From: a virus
Length of the DNA stretch: 41,698 nt
Direction: 5' to 3' (one strand)
IMG/VR virus record: IMGVR_UViG_3300045988_115336
Coordinates: 1 to 41,698 of that record
Below the pieces are notes generated by a model, which made no database searches, had not been told where the DNA came from, and worked only from the letters and a program-made list of their open reading frames with translations. The position numbers and the translations under genes are program-made. Positions 56 to 41,698 of the stretch are shown here, one piece after another; within the stretch, counting starts at the first letter, position 1; each line of letters begins with the position of its first letter.

Positions 56-520
56 ATAAAGATTAAAAATTACAAATTAGAAGATAATAAAAAACACTAT
101 TGTAGTAGAGAGTGCCAATATAGAGATTTTACAGGTAGGAAAAATACAAAAGAATATAAACATATGATGAGGGAAATAACACCAAGAGGAGAAAATAGTC
201 CACATTGGAAATTTGAAAAAACTGATGAAGAACGATTAATAGGAAGAGCTACACCTGAAGACCACGAATGGAGGGTAAGAGTTCTCGAAAGAGATAATTA
301 TACTTGTCAAGTTTGTGGTAAAAGAGGTGGGGATTTATGTGTTCATCATATTAATGGTTATCATTGGGATAAAGAACATAGACATGACATAAATAACGGA
401 ATTACTCTTTGTAAACATCACCATAAAGAATTTCATAAAATTTATGGAAATAAAAACAATACTAAAGAACAATTTGATGAATATATTAATAAAATACATG
501 TTAATACCGAGGTAAACTAA
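2..520 (+). CDS. Intron-encoded HNH endonuclease, C-terminal part (same ORF as 41417..41698; about 248 aa on the circle)
   Basis: The frame is open from base 2 and continuous with the ORF running off the window end. It has an HNH motif (CQVCG...HHINGY...NGITLC..HH) and resembles the 277-aa ORF at 5569-6402. Confidence 0.85.
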   Translation, partial: NHPKYIRKTVKCDYCGKKIKIKNYKLEDNKKHYCSRECQYRDFTGRKNTKEYKHMMREITPRGENSPHWKFEKTDEERLIGRATPEDHEWRVRVLERDNYTCQVCGKRGGDLCVHHINGYHWDKEHRHDINNGITLCKHHHKEFHKIYGNKNNTKEQFDEYINKIHVNTEVN

Positions 521-712
521 GAAGTTAAAAAGTCTTAGTCACCGTAACGCATAGGAATTGAACCTATGCTTTTTTATTGAAAAAAGTATAGAATAAAATA
601 TTCCCACGAGTGGTTAACACCTTAGCAAGTAAAGTTGAAGGTGAAAATATATGCTGAACTTATAGGAAACTATAAGAACTATAGGATAAAAAGCCTATAG
701 GATAACAAATTG

Positions 713-1421
713 AGAACTAACAGACGAAGCAGTATTATCAGGATATGGTAATCCTGTAGGTGAAACAAATAACCAAATAGCAAAATCAATAGCTTCTAAA
801 GTAGATAACGATGCAATAGATGTTTTATTTAATGCACAATTAATTTATGATGGCTCAGGCGGAATTATAAATTATGACAGAATAGTTGACGCAATAGATG
901 TATTTGATGAAGAATTAAATACAGAAAAAGCGATGTTTGTAAATCCCAAACAAGTTACACAATTAAGAAAAGATGCTAATTTTATATCTGCAGACAAATA
1001 TACTGGTCAAGTAGTTATGAATGGAGAAATAGGTAAAATAGCTAATTGCAGAATTGTAGCAACTAAAAAAGCTAAATTAGTGGATGAATGGTACTCTTTC
1101 TGCGAAAGTGGAACAAATAGTGCAGTAGAAGTAACATCTAGCAACTTAGCAACAATACAAGCTACATTGCCAAATGCAAAAGAAGGCGATTATGTATTAA
1201 AATCAACTACTGCAGTATACTTTAATCCAATTATAAAACTTAATAATGATGCTGAAACAGAAGAAGATACTGCTGCTTTAACTGTATACTTAAAAAGAGA
1301 TACAAATGTAGAAACAGATAGAGTATCTTTAGCAAGAAAAACTGATATATCTGCTGACAAACACTATACTGCAGTCTTATCAAATGCAGCTAAAGTTGTT
1401 TTAGCTAAATTTAAAAAATAA
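713..1421 (+). CDS. Major capsid protein, exon 3 (HK97-fold family)
   Basis: The frame is open from 714. It encodes ELTDEAVLSGYGNPVGE..., a conserved capsid motif, with no start codon or RBS of its own before Met at 933. Confidence 0.85.
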
Positions 1422-20418: not shown

Positions 20419-21945
20419 TTATATATTTAGTGTTATTTCTAACTCGAAGTAATCCTCATTGCTGCCTTTTTTACTTTTTTTCTTTTTAGCATAAGTTATT
20501 TCTTTTATAATGCTTTTTAACAATTCGTTTTTTCCTTCTATACTAAGAATATTATAATTTTTTAATACATTTTCTAATTTAGGTATTAGTTTTTTTATTT
20601 TTATAACTTTATCGCTACCAAATTCTTTTTCTAATACTTTTTTATTTTCTTCTAGTATTTTGATTTTATCTTTTATTTTACTGGTCCTATCTTTATAAAC
20701 TTCTATAGTATATACATCTTGTTCTAAAAATGTACAGCATTTTTCAAATTGCTTATTTAGTTTCTCAATTTCTTTTTCAATTCTTTTTAGATCATTGTCT
20801 ACATTTCTTTTTTCTTTTATCGTTTCTTGCTCATAATTATCTACATAATATTCATAATCAGATAACATATTTGATAATGCTTGTAAAATATGTTCTTCAA
20901 CTCTATTTAGATAAGAACCTATATTTTTACATCCAGTAGTAGAACAATATAAGAAATCACCTTGAGAACATCTTCTTTTTACCATGATTCTATTACATTC
21001 AGAGCATCTTATTAGCCCAGCAAGTGGATTACTAAGTGGCAAATCAAAGTTAGATTTATGTTGCTTTCTAGAATTTAATATATCTTGTACCTTTTCAAAT
21101 TTGTGCAAAGGTATAATTGCTTCATGCAGTCCTTTATAATATTCAACATCTTTATTTACTGGTCTAGATTTTTTTACATTACCTTTTGCATCTATATATT
21201 TCTTATATTTTCTTTCTCCATGTTTGAGATATCCAGCTACTACATTGCTTGTTAATATATTTTTTACTGAGTTGTAACTCCATACACGACCACTTCTAGT
21301 AGGATAGCCTCCTTGATTAAGCCTTTTCGCTATTATGCTAGCACCAATATTATCTTCCAGAAACCATTTAAATATTAATTTTACTATATGTGCTTCTTCT
21401 TCGTTGATTGTAAGTTTAAAGCCATTTTCTCCCTCTAATTTCTCCTTGTTATAGCCATAAGGAAGAATAGAGCCTATGTATTTACCTTGTTTTACGGATT
21501 GTTCACGACCTCGTTGCATACGTTTCGTGATAGTTTTATATTCCCTTCTAGACATGAACAGTCCGAAGTCGACCATTTCTTCATCGAACTCATTGTTTGC
21601 AAGGTCATAAGTCTTACTTGGTGTAATTATTTTACATTCCGCAGCAGTAAAGGTACTAGATACAATTTCTTGGTCTATCTTACTACCTCTACATAACCTT
21701 GATAATTCAGTGCAAAAAACACCTTCATATAATCCCTCAGATACTTTTTCTAGTAGGTCCTGCATCTTTGGACGGATAGAAATACTATCTCCAGTTTCTA
21801 TTTCTCGAAATATATTTTCTTCTTCTATCTGTATTTTTAACTTGTCAGCCAATTCCGTTAGCATATTGTAATGATTTTTTAGAACCTTTTCTAATGGAAT
21901 ATCCTTATCATCAGCACGGCTTTTCCTTAAATACATTGCATACAT
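20419..21945 (-). CDS. Large serine recombinase (integrase)
   Basis: N-terminus YLRKSRAD (catalytic Ser context), a resolvase/recombinase-like core, a Cys-rich zinc ribbon (CSECNR...CSTTGC) and a C-terminal coiled coil. Confidence 0.85.
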   Translation of the reverse strand: MYAMYLRKSRADDKDIPLEKVLKNHYNMLTELADKLKIQIEEENIFREIETGDSISIRPKMQDLLEKVSEGLYEGVFCTELSRLCRGSKIDQEIVSSTFTAAECKIITPSKTYDLANNEFDEEMVDFGLFMSRREYKTITKRMQRGREQSVKQGKYIGSILPYGYNKEKLEGENGFKLTINEEEAHIVKLIFKWFLEDNIGASIIAKRLNQGGYPTRSGRVWSYNSVKNILTSNVVAGYLKHGERKYKKYIDAKGNVKKSRPVNKDVEYYKGLHEAIIPLHKFEKVQDILNSRKQHKSNFDLPLSNPLAGLIRCSECNRIMVKRRCSQGDFLYCSTTGCKNIGSYLNRVEEHILQALSNMLSDYEYYVDNYEQETIKEKRNVDNDLKRIEKEIEKLNKQFEKCCTFLEQDVYTIEVYKDRTSKIKDKIKILEENKKVLEKEFGSDKVIKIKKLIPKLENVLKNYNILSIEGKNELLKSIIKEITYAKKKKSKKGSNEDYFELEITLNI

Positions 21946-35179: not shown

Positions 35180-35683
35180 ATGGCTAAATTAACAGCTAAA
35201 CAAAAGAAGTTTGTAGAAGAATACTTGATAGACCTTAATGCCACTCAAGCGGCTATTAGGGCTGGATATAGTCCGGATACAGCAAAAGAAATTGGCTGCG
35301 AAAACTTAACGAAACCTAACATAAAAGCTGAAATAGACAAAGCTATAGCAGAGAGAAGTCGAAGGACGGGTATTAATCAAGATAGAGTTTTAAGGGAATT
35401 AGCAAAGATAGCATTTGTAAATCCTGGAGATGTCATAAATTTTGATGAAGCTACAGTAAAAAGTGATGCAAAGGAAGATGATTTAGCAGCTATAGCAAGT
35501 GTAAAAATAAAAAACATACCAACAGAAGATGGTGAAATAACAGAAAGGGAAATAAAATTATGCGACAAGCTAAAAGCATTAGATTTACTCGGTAAACATC
35601 TAGGCATATATGACAAACATGAAGCAAAGGATAGAAATTTAACAATAACAATAAATAAGGCAAGTGAAAAAAATGGAAATTAA
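35180..35683 (+). CDS. terS: Terminase small subunit
   Basis: [14 protein letters not shown]...[12 protein letters not shown] matches the Terminase_2/P27-type N-terminus. The ATG after AAGGAG is preferred over the GTG at 35171. Confidence 0.85.
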
Positions 35684-36947
35684 TATAACTTGCAATGATC
35701 ACTTTGAAGATTTTGTTTTAGATTGGAACTATAAATTTTATTTTCTTGTTGGCGGTTATGGTAGTTCTAAAAGTTATCATGTGGCCCAAAAGCTGCATCT
35801 GAAATTATTGCAAGAAAAGAGATTGGCATTAGTTGTAAGAGAAGTGTATGACACTATACGAGATAGCTGCTTTTCACTTTTACAAGACGTAGCAGTGGAT
35901 ATGGGCATATACGATATGCTTAAATTTAAGACATCACCAATGCAAGTAACGTATCCTAATGGGAGTAAGATAATTTTTAAAGGTATGGATAAGCCAGCTA
36001 AATTAAAATCTATCAATGGAGTATCTATTATATGGGTTGAAGAATGTTCCGAGGTTAAATATGAAGGATTTAAAGAACTTTTAGGGCGTTTAAGACATCC
36101 TACACTTAGTAATCACATTATACTTAGTGAAAATCCCATAGAAAAGGCTAACTGGACCTATAAGCATTTTTTTATTGATGAAGAGAATGATAAAAAAATA
36201 CTTGATGATGAAAAACTTTATATCGAAAGGATTATAAAAACTAATAATACATATTATCATCATTCTATTTGTGACGATAATTATTTTCTACCTCAGGACT
36301 ATATAAAAGAACTTGATAACATGAAAGAATATGACCCGGATTTATATAGAGTAGCTCGCCAAGGAAGATTTGGCATAAATGGAACCAAAGTATTGCCGCA
36401 ATTTGAAATGATGGACCACGATTTAGTTATGGCTAAAGTAGGTTCTATACCTTCTAGATTTTATAGAGCTGGTATGGACTTTGGATTTGAAACTTCATAC
36501 AATGCATTAGTTAGAATTGCTATAGATGATGTGAATAAAGATTTGTATATTTACTGGGAATATTATAAAAATCATATGACAGATGATAAGACTGCTAAAG
36601 AAATAGATGAATTTAGAGTAAATAGAGAGTTAATAAGAGCAGATAGCGCTGAGCCTAAGACAATTAAATTTTATCAACAAGAAGGTTTTAAAATGATACC
36701 GGCTAAAAAATATCAAGGTTCTAGGCTCCAAAACACTAAAAAAGTAAAAAGATTTAAACATATATATTGCTCAACTAAATGTGTAAATGTAAAAAAAGAA
36801 TTAAAGGATCTAACATATAAGCAAAACGAAAAAGGTGAAAATATATATGATGAATTTAATATAGACCCTCATACTTTTAGTGCTATTTGGTATGCACTAG
36901 ATGGTTATGAGGTAGCAGATTATAAAAGACATTATCACAGCAGATAG
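35664..36947 (+). CDS. terL: Terminase large subunit (PBSX-like family)
   Basis: The Walker-A-like segment VGGYGSSKS, its size and its position. Confidence 0.85.
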
Positions 36948-36962
36948 AAAGGAGGTTATAAG

Positions 36963-38384
36963 ATGCTTAATAGTTATCAAGAGTTTGTTACAGCAGAACT
37001 TACTGGATTATATGGCTCGGCAGTATTGCAAGAAATGAATCATATACTAAGACTATATGACATATACGAAGGCCGAGAAAACTTTATAGATAAGACAGAA
37101 GAAAAAGACTATACACAGACAGAAAAGAAAACAAATCTGATTAAGAAGCTTATAAAAGAAGAATCTAGATTTTTATTCGGTAAGACTCCAGAGTTATACA
37201 TTCAGCCTAAAAATGATACAGAAGTTGACAAAGATAAAGCCGAAGAAATAAATCTTTACTTAGGCAAGATACTAAAAGATAATTTATTCTCGGAGAAGCT
37301 TGTAAAAGGAGCTAGAGATTGTTTTATAGGTAAAAGAACTGCTATTAAATTATATGCTAATCAAGATACGAAAGAGATTAGAATAATGTTTTTACCTAGT
37401 TTAGAGTTTATATATGAAAGCGACGAAGAAAATCCTAACGAACTTAAAAAGATAATATTCTTCTATCAGACTAACAAGGAAGTTGAAAGAGATAAGCAAC
37501 GTATTTGGAAACAAAAGTATGAAATGATAGATGGAAGATGTATTCTTAATGAAGGGATATATAACGGTAATGGGGTATTAATAGAGCCTATAAATGTAGA
37601 TGTAGATTTACAATTAAGTGGTATTCCTTGCTATGTAATTATCAATGATGGATTAAGTGGAGACCCGTTCGGAGAATCTGATGTAAAAGAGTTACTAGAC
37701 AATCAAATCCAATACAACAGGCTATCGAGTGAAGATGTAGACACACTTAGAAAAGGTATGGATAGGATAATCTATGGAGTAGATATAGACCCAGAGGCAT
37801 CGGAAAACTTCAAGCTAAAGCCTGGAGCTTATTGGGATGTACCGACAGACCCTACAGCAGAAGGTAAACAAGCTACACTAGGTACAATACCAACAGACTT
37901 TGGTTATGGAGATAAAATAGAAAACTCTCTAAAACGTATCAAGTCAGATATGTACGAGATGTTAAATATTCCAATGTTATCAAATGATGAATTAAAAGGC
38001 ATGATGACATCAGGCAAAACTATGAAGGCGCTATACTGGCAACTTATTACTAGATGTGAAGAAAAGATGATGGCATGGCGACCTGCTTTAGAATGGCTAA
38101 TAAGAGCAATACTTGAAATTACAGAAGTATATCAAATAGAAAAATTACCGCAGCTTGATTACACTGTTACAGTAGAAAATAACTATCCTTTACAGGAAGA
38201 TGAAGACGAAGAAAAGACATTAGACTTGCAACAAGTAAATGCACAGGCTATGTCTAGAAAAACATTTATTAAGAAATGGCAAGGTGTTACAGATGATGTG
38301 GCCGATGCTGAAATAAGACAAATAGCACTAGAACGAGAAATGCTAGAAGAAAGCTATGTAGGAATGAGTGGTTCAGTTGAATAA
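36963..38384 (+). CDS. Portal protein (SPP1 gp6-like)
   Basis: 473 aa, directly after terL; family-like sequence. Confidence 0.8.
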   Translation: MLNSYQEFVTAELTGLYGSAVLQEMNHILRLYDIYEGRENFIDKTEEKDYTQTEKKTNLIKKLIKEESRFLFGKTPELYIQPKNDTEVDKDKAEEINLYLGKILKDNLFSEKLVKGARDCFIGKRTAIKLYANQDTKEIRIMFLPSLEFIYESDEENPNELKKIIFFYQTNKEVERDKQRIWKQKYEMIDGRCILNEGIYNGNGVLIEPINVDVDLQLSGIPCYVIINDGLSGDPFGESDVKELLDNQIQYNRLSSEDVDTLRKGMDRIIYGVDIDPEASENFKLKPGAYWDVPTDPTAEGKQATLGTIPTDFGYGDKIENSLKRIKSDMYEMLNIPMLSNDELKGMMTSGKTMKALYWQLITRCEEKMMAWRPALEWLIRAILEITEVYQIEKLPQLDYTVTVENNYPLQEDEDEEKTLDLQQVNAQAMSRKTFIKKWQGVTDDVADAEIRQIALEREMLEESYVGMSGSVE

Positions 38385-40004: not shown

Positions 40005-40107
40005 AGCCTTATTTTTATGTCTTTTTTTAGTTTACAGACGTAAAAGAATAAACTAAAAACTATATTCAAGATGCAGACTTGTAAAAAGTGTAGATATAGG
40101 AGGATAT

Positions 40108-40719
40108 ATGAATTTTAACGATATACTAAAATCACAAAATTTAACAGATGAACAAATAAATAACATTACTGCAAAGATGAAAGAAGAAAAAATATATACT
40201 ACATCTTTAGAAAATGCAGACGAACGATATACGAAATTAAAAGGCCAAAAAGCTGATTTAGATGAGCAGATAAAAACAGCAAATACAACTATAGAAGATT
40301 TGAAGAAAAATAATAAAGATAACGAAGCTTTGCAAAAGGCAATACAAGAACATGAAACGACTATAGAAAATCTAAAAAAAGAATCGGCTCAAAAGGATTT
40401 TAATTACGCATTAGATAGTGCATTAAAAGATAATAAATGCAAGAATGCTAAAGCATTAAAAGCTTTACTAGATTTAGATAATATAAAATTTAATGAAGGT
40501 AAATTAGAAGGCTTAGAAGGGCAATTAACTGCATTGAAGGAAAGCGATGGATATTTATTTGATACATCAAATCCAGCTCCAGGTAATACTGGTGGAACAG
40601 GCAATCATCCAAGAGTTGGCGATGGAGCAATAACAAAAGAACAATTTAATAAAATGACTTATAAAGAAAGAGTAGATTTATTCAATTCTAATAAAGAACT
40701 GTATGATCAATTAAAATAA
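40108..40719 (+). CDS. Scaffolding protein (GP20/DUF4355-like)
   Basis: Coiled-coil-rich, 203 aa, immediately upstream of the capsid gene; TAGGAGGA RBS. Confidence 0.75.
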   Translation: MNFNDILKSQNLTDEQINNITAKMKEEKIYTTSLENADERYTKLKGQKADLDEQIKTANTTIEDLKKNNKDNEALQKAIQEHETTIENLKKESAQKDFNYALDSALKDNKCKNAKALKALLDLDNIKFNEGKLEGLEGQLTALKESDGYLFDTSNPAPGNTGGTGNHPRVGDGAITKEQFNKMTYKERVDLFNSNKELYDQLK

Positions 40720-40734
40720 TAGGAAGGTGATAAT

Positions 40735-40894
40735 ATGTCAACAACAAAAATTGCAGATTTAATAAATCCAGAAGTAATGGCAGATATGATTTCAGCCAAA
40801 ATAGAAAAAAAATTAGTGGTTACACCATTTGCTAAAATAGATACTACATTAGTAGGGCAACCAGGAAATACTATAACAGTTCCACAATATGCGT
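40735..40894 (+). CDS. Major capsid protein, exon 1
   Basis: AGGAAGGTGA RBS. It encodes MSTTKIADLINPEVMADMI...GQPGNTITVPQYA, a conserved capsid N-terminus, and the frame hits TAA right after this point. Confidence 0.85.
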
Positions 40895-41172
40895 AAAAAT
40901 ATGCGCCTTTACATAGTGATATGTATTGCAAACCCTTTTAATTGCTGGAAACTCCTAAAGAGTTCATCTCACTTTAGGACAATCAGCAGCGAAGATTCAT
41001 TAAATATATATTTAATGAATAACGTTCAACGACTAGCCGAAAGGCGTACACCCAAGTGGGTGGAAATGGAGGGCAACTCAAGGAGTTGATGATATAGTCT
41101 AATCTATATAGTAATATATAGCAGTTCATAAGAGAACGATACAAGATTAACGACCTTGTATGAATGTAAATG
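40895..41172 (+). mobile_element. Group I intron MCP-i1 (278 nt, ORF-less)
   Basis: GCGU/GCGC forms P1 with a U.G pair. ACGACUA ... AUAGUC forms a P7-like pair. There are several hairpins, GNRA loops and a terminal G. Joining the exons gives PQYA|YIGDAVDVAEG. Confidence 0.85.
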
Positions 41173-41275
41173 ATATAGGAGATGCAGTAGATGTAGCAGA
41201 AGGTGTTGCAGCAGAAACAGTAAAATTAACTACTACTTCAACAACTGCTACAGTAAAAAAAGCTATGAAAGCGGT
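41173..41275 (+). CDS. Major capsid protein, exon 2
   Basis: It encodes (Y)IGDAVDVAEGVAAETVKLTTTSTTATVKKAMKAV. It has no start codon, and the frame is restored only by splicing on both sides. Confidence 0.8.
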
Positions 41276-41698
41276 AAATTAATTCTGCCGTCTTCTTTAG
41301 AAATAAAGAAGTAATAAATTAACCAAAATCGGTAAAGGCTAAATATTTTATTATTTATGAAATTGAATTAACGGACTAAGCACTCAATATGTTATAATAT
41401 TATTGAGGTGATTAAGTTGAAAAAAATATGTCAATGTTGTAATAAAGAGTATAATGCAAAACGAAGTTCTTCAAAATATTGTTCTAAAGAATGTCAAATA
41501 AAAGCTAGAACGAAAAAAGTTAAAGTACAATGTAGCTATTGTAAAAAAGAAATAGAACGTAAAGCTTGTCATATGAAATACGAAAAGCACTTCTGTAATA
41601 ATGAATGTAGAGGTAAATGGATGAGTGAAAATTTAGTAGCAGAAAACCATCCTAAATATATAAGAAAAACTGTAAAATGTGATTATTGTGGAAAAAAA
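41276..41698 (+). mobile_element. 5' portion of group-I-type intron MCP-i2 (continues at base 56 on the circle)
   Basis: The 5' splice site follows U41275, and GCGGU pairs with GCCGU at 41287-91. It contains the start of the HNH ORF. Confidence 0.8.
41417..41698 (+). CDS. Intron-encoded HNH endonuclease, N-terminal part (runs off the window; continues at 56..520)
   Basis: TTG start 6 nt after GAGGTG. MKKICQCCNKEY... has Cys4 modules homologous to 5569-6402. There is no stop codon before the window end. Confidence 0.8.
   Translation, partial: MKKICQCCNKEYNAKRSSSKYCSKECQIKARTKKVKVQCSYCKKEIERKACHMKYEKHFCNNECRGKWMSENLVAENHPKYIRKTVKCDYCGKK

Follow-up and report, generated by a model that had tools for sequence, protein, structure and literature searches.

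The major capsid gene of the phage genome described here is, we are confident, interrupted by a group I intron of 278 nt that would be spliced out by joining position 40894 to position 41173 to give a full-length capsid protein, and that belongs to the lineage of the phage Tuc2009 capsid intron, its open reading frame (ORF) having been lost. The stretch of DNA analysed (41,698 nt, hereafter the window) is a circular contig whose last 55 bases repeat the first 55 (direct repeat 1-55 and 41644-41698), which sets the genome at approximately 41,643 bp. The contig is cut within an HNH ORF carried by a second intron, so that the capsid gene wraps around the window ends. Judging by its gene order, which is typical of such phages, the host genome is an approximately 41.6-kb circular, temperate siphovirus-like genome. 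The relevant features are as follows.

20419-21945, minus strand: serine recombinase
35664-36947: terminase
36963-38384: SPP1-type portal protein
Between the portal and scaffold genes in the gene order: Mu-F-like head protein
40108-40719: scaffold protein (PF06810)
40721-40730, plus strand: Shine-Dalgarno sequence AGGAAGGTGA of the capsid gene, upstream of ATG 40735, read from the sequence
40735-40894, plus strand: capsid exon 1, 53 codons and the first base of Tyr54
40895-41172, plus strand: intron 1, 278 nt, no ORF, starting AAAAATATGCGCC and ending ...GTAAATG, preceded by GCGT at 40891-40894
41173-41275, plus strand: capsid exon 2, 103 nt, beginning ATATAGGAGATGC
41276-41698, plus strand: 5′ part of intron 2, with the HNH ORF starting at TTG 41417
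56-712, plus strand: 3′ part of intron 2, with the HNH ORF ending at 520, a conserved structured core at about 498-712, and G712 as its end
713-1421, plus strand: capsid exon 3, E-L-T-D-E-A-V-L-S-G-Y-G ... to the stop codon
Past the window origin, after the capsid gene: head-tail and tail genes

The interrupted gene is the only major capsid gene of the genome. A megablast search of the capsid region against isolated phages returned no match, so the source phage is no sequenced isolate; the nearest uninterrupted capsid genes were found in Clostridia MAGs, and the phage itself is an uncultivated gut phage. Directly upstream of the scaffold gene, a stretch seen in contig L115 (L115:124-194, about 40025-40094 in the window) scored 31.8 bits (E 0.003) with the Rfam GP20-b model, below its threshold of 36.2, and the window itself had no gathering-level match to this model. 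We take the GP20-b motif to be associated with the PF06810 scaffold gene family.

As the earlier note had observed, the capsid gene opens with a strong ribosome-binding site, AGGAAGGTGA before ATG 40735, and stops abruptly: the unspliced ORF (40735-40896) ends ...TVPQYA after 53 codons, followed by TAA at 40894-40896. The conserved continuation IGDAVDVAEG resumes at 41175, beyond an insert of 278 nt as the note had said; its further statement that no start codon precedes this continuation has to be amended, since an in-frame ATG is present at 41160, within helix P9.2 of intron 1. This ATG opens a 40-aa ORF (MNVNDIGDAVDV..., 41160-41282) that runs into exon 2, lacks a Shine-Dalgarno sequence and would miss the conserved Tyr. 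It looks incidental, but gene callers would list it as a piece of the capsid gene.

Intron 1 matches the Rfam group I intron model RF00028 (Intron_gpI) over positions 40885-41121 and model positions 1-253 with 112.8 bits (E 1e-28), well over the gathering score of 50; this was one of the checks proposed in the earlier note. A 100% identical copy of the intron in contig L117 gave the same 112.8 bits when a 601-nt sub-range (L117:4400-5000) was searched. Scans of the whole loci L117, L084, L109 and L115 for RF00028, in gathering and E-value modes, yielded no match, even for the identical copy; these negatives on long stretches are speed-filter artefacts that leave the bit score unaffected and were not used as evidence. 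The MFE z-score of the intron is −5.56, with none of 200 shuffled sequences folding as well, and the unconstrained MFE fold recovers P3, P4, P5, P6, P7.1, P7.2, P8, P9.1 and P9.2. Searching viral contigs with a 23-nt core pattern brought up 90 stretches, and an alignment of 25 distinct relatives was used to assess covariation. The assignment of P7, P7.1, P7.2, P8 and P9 places 96.9% of the cells of this alignment in standard pairs and includes 15 pairs with compensatory changes, compared with at most 41% paired for control structures slid by 1-3 columns. P7, including its bulged C, is invariant across the 25 introns, and the invariance of P7 and P7.1 comes partly from how the sequences were selected, making it uninformative on covariation either way. 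By blastn, 60-89% of intron 1 is 70-80% identical to intron regions of T4-like, Staphylococcus and Bacillus phages. Introns of this type are common in T-even phages and in those that infect low-GC Gram-positive bacteria; the present one probably belongs to subgroup IA2, a label that we infer from the presence of P7.1 and P7.2. The only ORFs of at least 25 aa inside it are one of 66 aa starting in exon 1 and one of 53 aa in antisense, neither encoding an endonuclease; the former was judged non-conserved because it is shortened to 40 aa in contig L109.

The structural elements of intron 1 are listed below, all on the plus strand.

40891-40906: P1 hairpin, exon GCGU(A) at 40891-40895 with internal guide (U)GCGC at 40902-40906 (Rfam alignment and sequence)
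40911-40924: P2 hairpin, ACAU/AUGU (Rfam alignment and sequence)
40933-40938: P3, 5′ strand CCCUUU, pairing with 41068-41073 (Rfam alignment and MFE fold)
40943-40948 (UGCUGG) with 40983-40988 (UCAGCA): P4, enclosing P5; P4/P5 are the classical P and Q elements
40953-40960 with 40972-40979: P5, inside P4
40989-40991 with 41023-41025: P6
40995-41020: P6a hairpin, whose loop at about 41007-41010 is the site of the endonuclease ORF in sibling contigs and Tuc2009
41029-41035 (ACGACUA): P7, 5′ strand (R element), made of A, bulged C and GACUA, pairing with 41095-41100
41036-41045: P7.1, GCC-GAAA-GGC
41049-41062: P7.2, CACCC-AAGU-GGGUG, all 5 pairs with compensatory changes
41068-41073: P3, 3′ strand
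41074-41088: P8 hairpin, compensatory changes in 5 of 5 counted pairs
41095-41100 (UAGUCU): P7, 3′ strand (S element)
41104-41121: P9, GUAA loop, compensatory changes in 5 of 7 pairs
41124-41137: P9.1, nearly identical in Tuc2009
41139-41161: P9.2
41172: terminal guanosine, followed by the 3′ splice site

The classical core elements are readable in the sequence as AAUUGCUGGAAA (40940), AAUCAGCAGC (40981), GUUCAACGACUAG (41024) and GAUAUAGUCU (41091). P3 contains two non-standard pairs in the Rfam alignment. The region 41122-41172, which lies beyond the end of the Rfam model, is occupied by the P9.1 and P9.2 hairpins and finishes at G41172. P1 is short, with four exon pairs (GCGU 40891-40894 with GCGC 40903-40906) and one more, and places the wobble U40894·G40903 at the 5′ splice site, as originally proposed. 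The P7-like helix suggested at the time, ACGACUA with AUAGUC, is found within 2 nt of where it had been placed (41029-41035 and 41094-41099), and the GNRA/GAAA loops that had been noticed are located in P7.1 (GAAA) and P9 (GUAA). The P10 guide AUAU (40899-40902), directly 5′ of the P1 guide, pairs with AUAU at 41173-41176 of exon 2. P10 in the window thus consists of four A-U pairs (AAUAU-GCGC), compared with six in most sibling copies and seven in Tuc2009, and this allele, with its weaker P10, may splice less accurately.

Besides the window, intron 1 occurs at the same site in nine IMG/VR contigs and four further metagenome contigs; two other metagenome matches, L317 and L320, lie in unrelated contexts and were set aside as chance. 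In seven of these contigs (L105, L109, L115, L122, L319, L322 and L323) the intron is 1236-1237 nt long and bears a 302-aa ORF with its own ribosome-binding site. In the copy read in detail (L109:1447-2682), the P6a loop contains the ORF, and the 3′ strand of this hairpin overlaps the ORF's stop codon. Compared over its full length with Tuc2009 orf38, the L109 ORF shows 47% identity (E 1e-103). The 302-aa ORF falls into PHROG families named as homing or intron-encoded nucleases, Pfam giving only a treble-clef zinc-finger domain; a sequence search of the PDB with the L109 ORF returned just a chance rubredoxin-like match (E 0.36). The L109 intron is the window intron with 958 nt added: the two have a prefix of 116 nt and a suffix of 166 nt in common, which overlap by 4 nt (TATA), and they differ nowhere else. 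The simplest reading of these sequences is that the window copy would be a recent ORF-loss derivative produced by a clean 958-nt deletion; loss is preferred because the distant Tuc2009 relative has its ORF at the same place. The earlier description of a compact, ORF-less intron therefore holds for the window, and comparison adds that this form probably derives from an ORF-bearing one. Having lost its endonuclease ORF, intron 1 would no longer be able to home on its own.

This loss, together with the reduction of P10 to four pairs relative to the siblings, could also be taken to mean that intron 1 is a dead relic that no longer splices, in which case the capsid gene would be a pseudogene of a defective prophage. 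We regard this as very improbable. The core helices are all intact and the RF00028 score is high. The reading frame stays open through the three capsid exons, whose DNA sequences are 93-100% identical among at least 13 contigs from different samples, which is unexpected for a decaying gene. Moreover, the window contig assembles as a circle with a full set of virion genes, and several of the contigs come from a viral-contig collection. The reading of intron 1 as a standard group I ribozyme, whose removal capsid synthesis would require, is in our view a strong inference from the sequence.

Joining 40894 to 41173 yields TAT-ATA-GGA (Y-I-G) and rebuilds the Tyr54 codon, which intron 1 splits as T|AT. 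No other join can yield Y-I-G, since ATATAGG directly follows the intron's terminal G. The insertion point falls within the most conserved N-terminal motif of the protein, in which Y52, Y54, I55, G56, A58 and D60 are invariant in the alignment to named phage capsids. The joined protein, with TVPQYAYIGDAVDVAEG (...TVPQYA-YIGDAVD...) as its predicted junction peptide, aligns without a gap across the junction to the capsids of Latilactobacillus phage TMW 1.2272 P1, Staphylococcus phage X2 and Listeria phage A500. The comparison with close uninterrupted homologues that the earlier note had called for thus bears out the rebuilt Tyr codon and motif and fixes the end of the element at G41172. The 323-aa length that it gave for the spliced protein is also correct, with the qualification that a second splice is needed: since the unspliced RNA stops at the TAA after 53 codons, the full-length protein requires both the splicing of intron 1 and the removal of the intron located 103 nt downstream (junction 41275|713, junction peptide KAVELTDEAV), exon 3 lying at 713-1421. 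The resulting protein matches phrog_544 (major head protein) over residues 2-322 (E 4e-76) and the uninterrupted L020 and L034 as single gap-free 322-aa matches with 79% identity, and 103 of 120 related loci give one single match spanning the whole protein. In a tblastn search of phages with the 88-aa spliced N-terminus, all matches ended at residue 54-55, which raised the suspicion of introns everywhere; direct alignment shows these homologues to be uninterrupted, and the match ends are due to the low-complexity filter.

A group I intron with other splice sites, for instance a 3′ site after G41121, where the Rfam match ends and the base is also a G, is scarcely credible. Joining 40894 to 41122 would give T-CAGTTCATAAGAGAACGATACAAGATTAA, which reaches a stop codon without the conserved YIGDA, and the gap-free alignment with homologues is obtained only for 40894|41173. 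In addition, positions 41122-41172 form P9.1 and P9.2, which are present in Tuc2009 as well, and P10 pairs with 41173-41176. Equally far-fetched is that the interruption, for which a bare gene interruption is the sole argument, reflects no RNA intron at all but an intein (excluded by the in-frame TAA immediately after exon 1), another mobile element (neither transposase genes nor terminal repeats are found) or an assembly chimera (the insert has identical boundaries in many independent assemblies), given the covariance-model and covariation evidence for a ribozyme.

For the splicing of the group I intron proposed here we assume standard group I chemistry, with two-step transesterification and a guanosine-binding role of P7. 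The internal guide 5′-AUAU-GCGC-3′ (40899-40906) would first pair with the 5′ exon end GCGU, so that the site of cleavage is marked by U40894·G40903. The attack after U40894 would come from an external guanosine docked in P7 at the G41031-C41099 pair beside the bulged C41030. The terminal G41172 would then take the same guanosine site while the guide pairs with AUAU of exon 2 to form P10, and the exons would be ligated, 40894 to 41173. Capsid production would then depend on splicing.

Intron 2 is 1080 nt long in total, preceded by U41275 and ending in G712, and contains an HNH ORF of 248 aa. Contigs L105, L109, L115 and L122 join window position 41275 directly to 713 and hence lack intron 2 precisely; the same exon 2-exon 3 join is found in L318 (L109 again), L319, L322 and L323. 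An 823-nt version of intron 2 is present in five contigs, L117 (4986-5808), L142, L125, L108 and L321. The L117 copy carries an ORF (L117:5098-5553, 151 aa) whose motifs point to the GIY-YIG type; in length and alignment boundaries, the remaining four copies agree with that of L117. Conservation between the 823-nt and 1080-nt versions covers the first 57 nt and the last 231 nt, and the difference between HNH and GIY-YIG amounts to a swap of endonuclease genes inside one ribozyme. RF00028 gave no match to intron 2, whether split across the window ends or contiguous in L084. By eye, the following helices can be assigned: P1 (GCGGU/GCCGU), P10 (AGAA/UUCU, directly 5′ of the P1 guide), P3 (UUAACC/GGUUAA), P4 (UCGGU/ACCGA, around the ORF) and P7 (GCAUA/UAUGC), as well as P8, P9 and P9.1, which are also predicted by RNAalifold. 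For 18 intron 2 relatives, RNAalifold predicts 42 pairs, and compensatory changes are seen in 30; in place of the GCAUA/UAUGC of the other relatives, L248 carries the canonical GACUA/UAGUC. Non-coding stretches of Streptococcus, Clostridioides and Staphylococcus phages match the last ~230 nt of intron 2 at 80-85% identity. On these observations we read intron 2 as a probable divergent group I intron that is widespread among the phages of these three genera.

The states of the two introns are associated. Among the 14 contigs, half (the window, L084, L108, L117, L125, L142 and L321) combine the ORF-less intron 1 with intron 2, the other half (the seven with the ORF-bearing intron 1) have no intron 2, and neither mixed combination occurs. 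Some contigs of opposite states are up to 99-100% identical to each other in exon 1, in exon 3 and over the 600 nt that follow, the backbones being mosaic, and a P1-loop variant occurs in both states. We tentatively raise the rather unlikely scenario that the two introns form one linked mobile unit, in which the intron 2 endonuclease would cut intron-2-less alleles and repair would co-convert the ORF-less intron 1, which could then dispense with an endonuclease of its own. If true, one intron would here be spreading naturally by way of its neighbour's endonuclease, or being ousted by it. A single ancestral event combined with linkage, in a small sample where one phage may be represented by more than one contig, may instead lie behind the association.

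For annotation, gene callers would give three capsid fragments and an endonuclease at this locus; once the two introns are recognised, a normal 323-aa major head protein emerges. The near-identical contigs constitute a natural series for the gain, loss and exchange of homing endonuclease genes in phage introns, which spans intron 1 with and without its ORF, the presence and absence of intron 2, and the replacement of HNH by GIY-YIG. The Tuc2009-type capsid intron is not limited to dairy lactococcal phages and circulates in human-gut phages with Clostridia capsid relatives. The current understanding of group I introns is unchanged by these findings.

Among known phage introns, those of T4-like nrdB and td, of Staphylococcus Twort/K-like phages and of Bacillus phages share with the window the core architecture, the P/Q/R/S elements and P7.1/P7.2, differing in that they reside in other host genes (nucleotide metabolism, polymerase, lysin) and in that many carry endonuclease genes. 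These introns self-splice by the guanosine-initiated mechanism. The primary paper on Tuc2009 is that of Seegers et al. (2004). Our comparison with this phage draws on its GenBank annotation, on an alignment of the sequences, and on what PMC3706429 and PMC2504315 cite. In GenBank (NC_002703, 20218-21530), the Tuc2009 major head protein is split into orf37 and orf39, with orf38, annotated as an endonuclease, between them, and a note reads "linked with orf37 after excision of group I intron"; in AF109874.2, the label "group I intron" spans orf38. The Tuc2009 intron sits at the same site of a homologous capsid gene, after the first base of the Tyr codon (T|AT) in Y-I-G-D-A-x-D-V-A-E-G. It is 1313 nt long, compared with 278 nt and no ORF in the window, and its ribozyme is ~75-80% identical to ours (106 of 143 positions in the 5′ part and 161 of 196 in the 3′ part). 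As in the sibling contigs, the P6a loop harbours its ORF, and the ORF's stop codon and the 3′ strand overlap. The segment from the ORF end to P7.2 is longer and different in Tuc2009. Exon 1 ends ...GGAGCT and exon 2 starts ATATTGGGGATGCAGCTGATGTTGCAGAAGG in Tuc2009, as opposed to ...GCGT and ATATAGGAGATGC in the window. Exon and guide sequences differ compensatorily between the two phages: with the same layout, the P10 guide directly 5′ of the P1 guide, Tuc2009 CCAAUAU-GGUUCC pairs with AUAUUGG (7 bp) and GGAGCU (6 bp), and CUAUAU-GCGC of the siblings pairs with AUAUAG and GCGU, so that the guides covary with the exons. Unlike the window gene, the Tuc2009 capsid gene has no second intron.

Other phages offer more distant parallels. 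Pope et al. (2013, PMC3706429) used RT-PCR and N-terminal sequencing to show that the capsid-gene intron of mycobacteriophage LittleE is spliced; like that of the window, this intron interrupts the major capsid gene of a temperate siphovirus, with a U at the exon end and a G at the intron end (PMC3706429). The 265-bp intron in a BAKA tail gene is an ORF-less relative of an ORF-bearing intron (Pope et al. 2013, PMC3706429). LittleE and BAKA differ from the window in their unrelated sequence and capsid family and their high-GC host, and the LittleE endonuclease is on the opposite strand. Compact group I introns are also found in the tape-measure, terminase and tail-tube genes of Bacillus cereus group prophages (Tourasse and Kolsto 2008, PMC2504315), which are other genes in other hosts than those considered here; the Tuc2009 head-protein intron is among the BLAST relatives of these introns (PMC2504315) and is also given by Pope et al. 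(PMC3706429). An intron in a major capsid gene is already established biology, to which the present element adds no new kind; as judged by its sequence, intron 1 of the window is an ORF-less new member of the lineage already annotated at the Tuc2009 capsid site.
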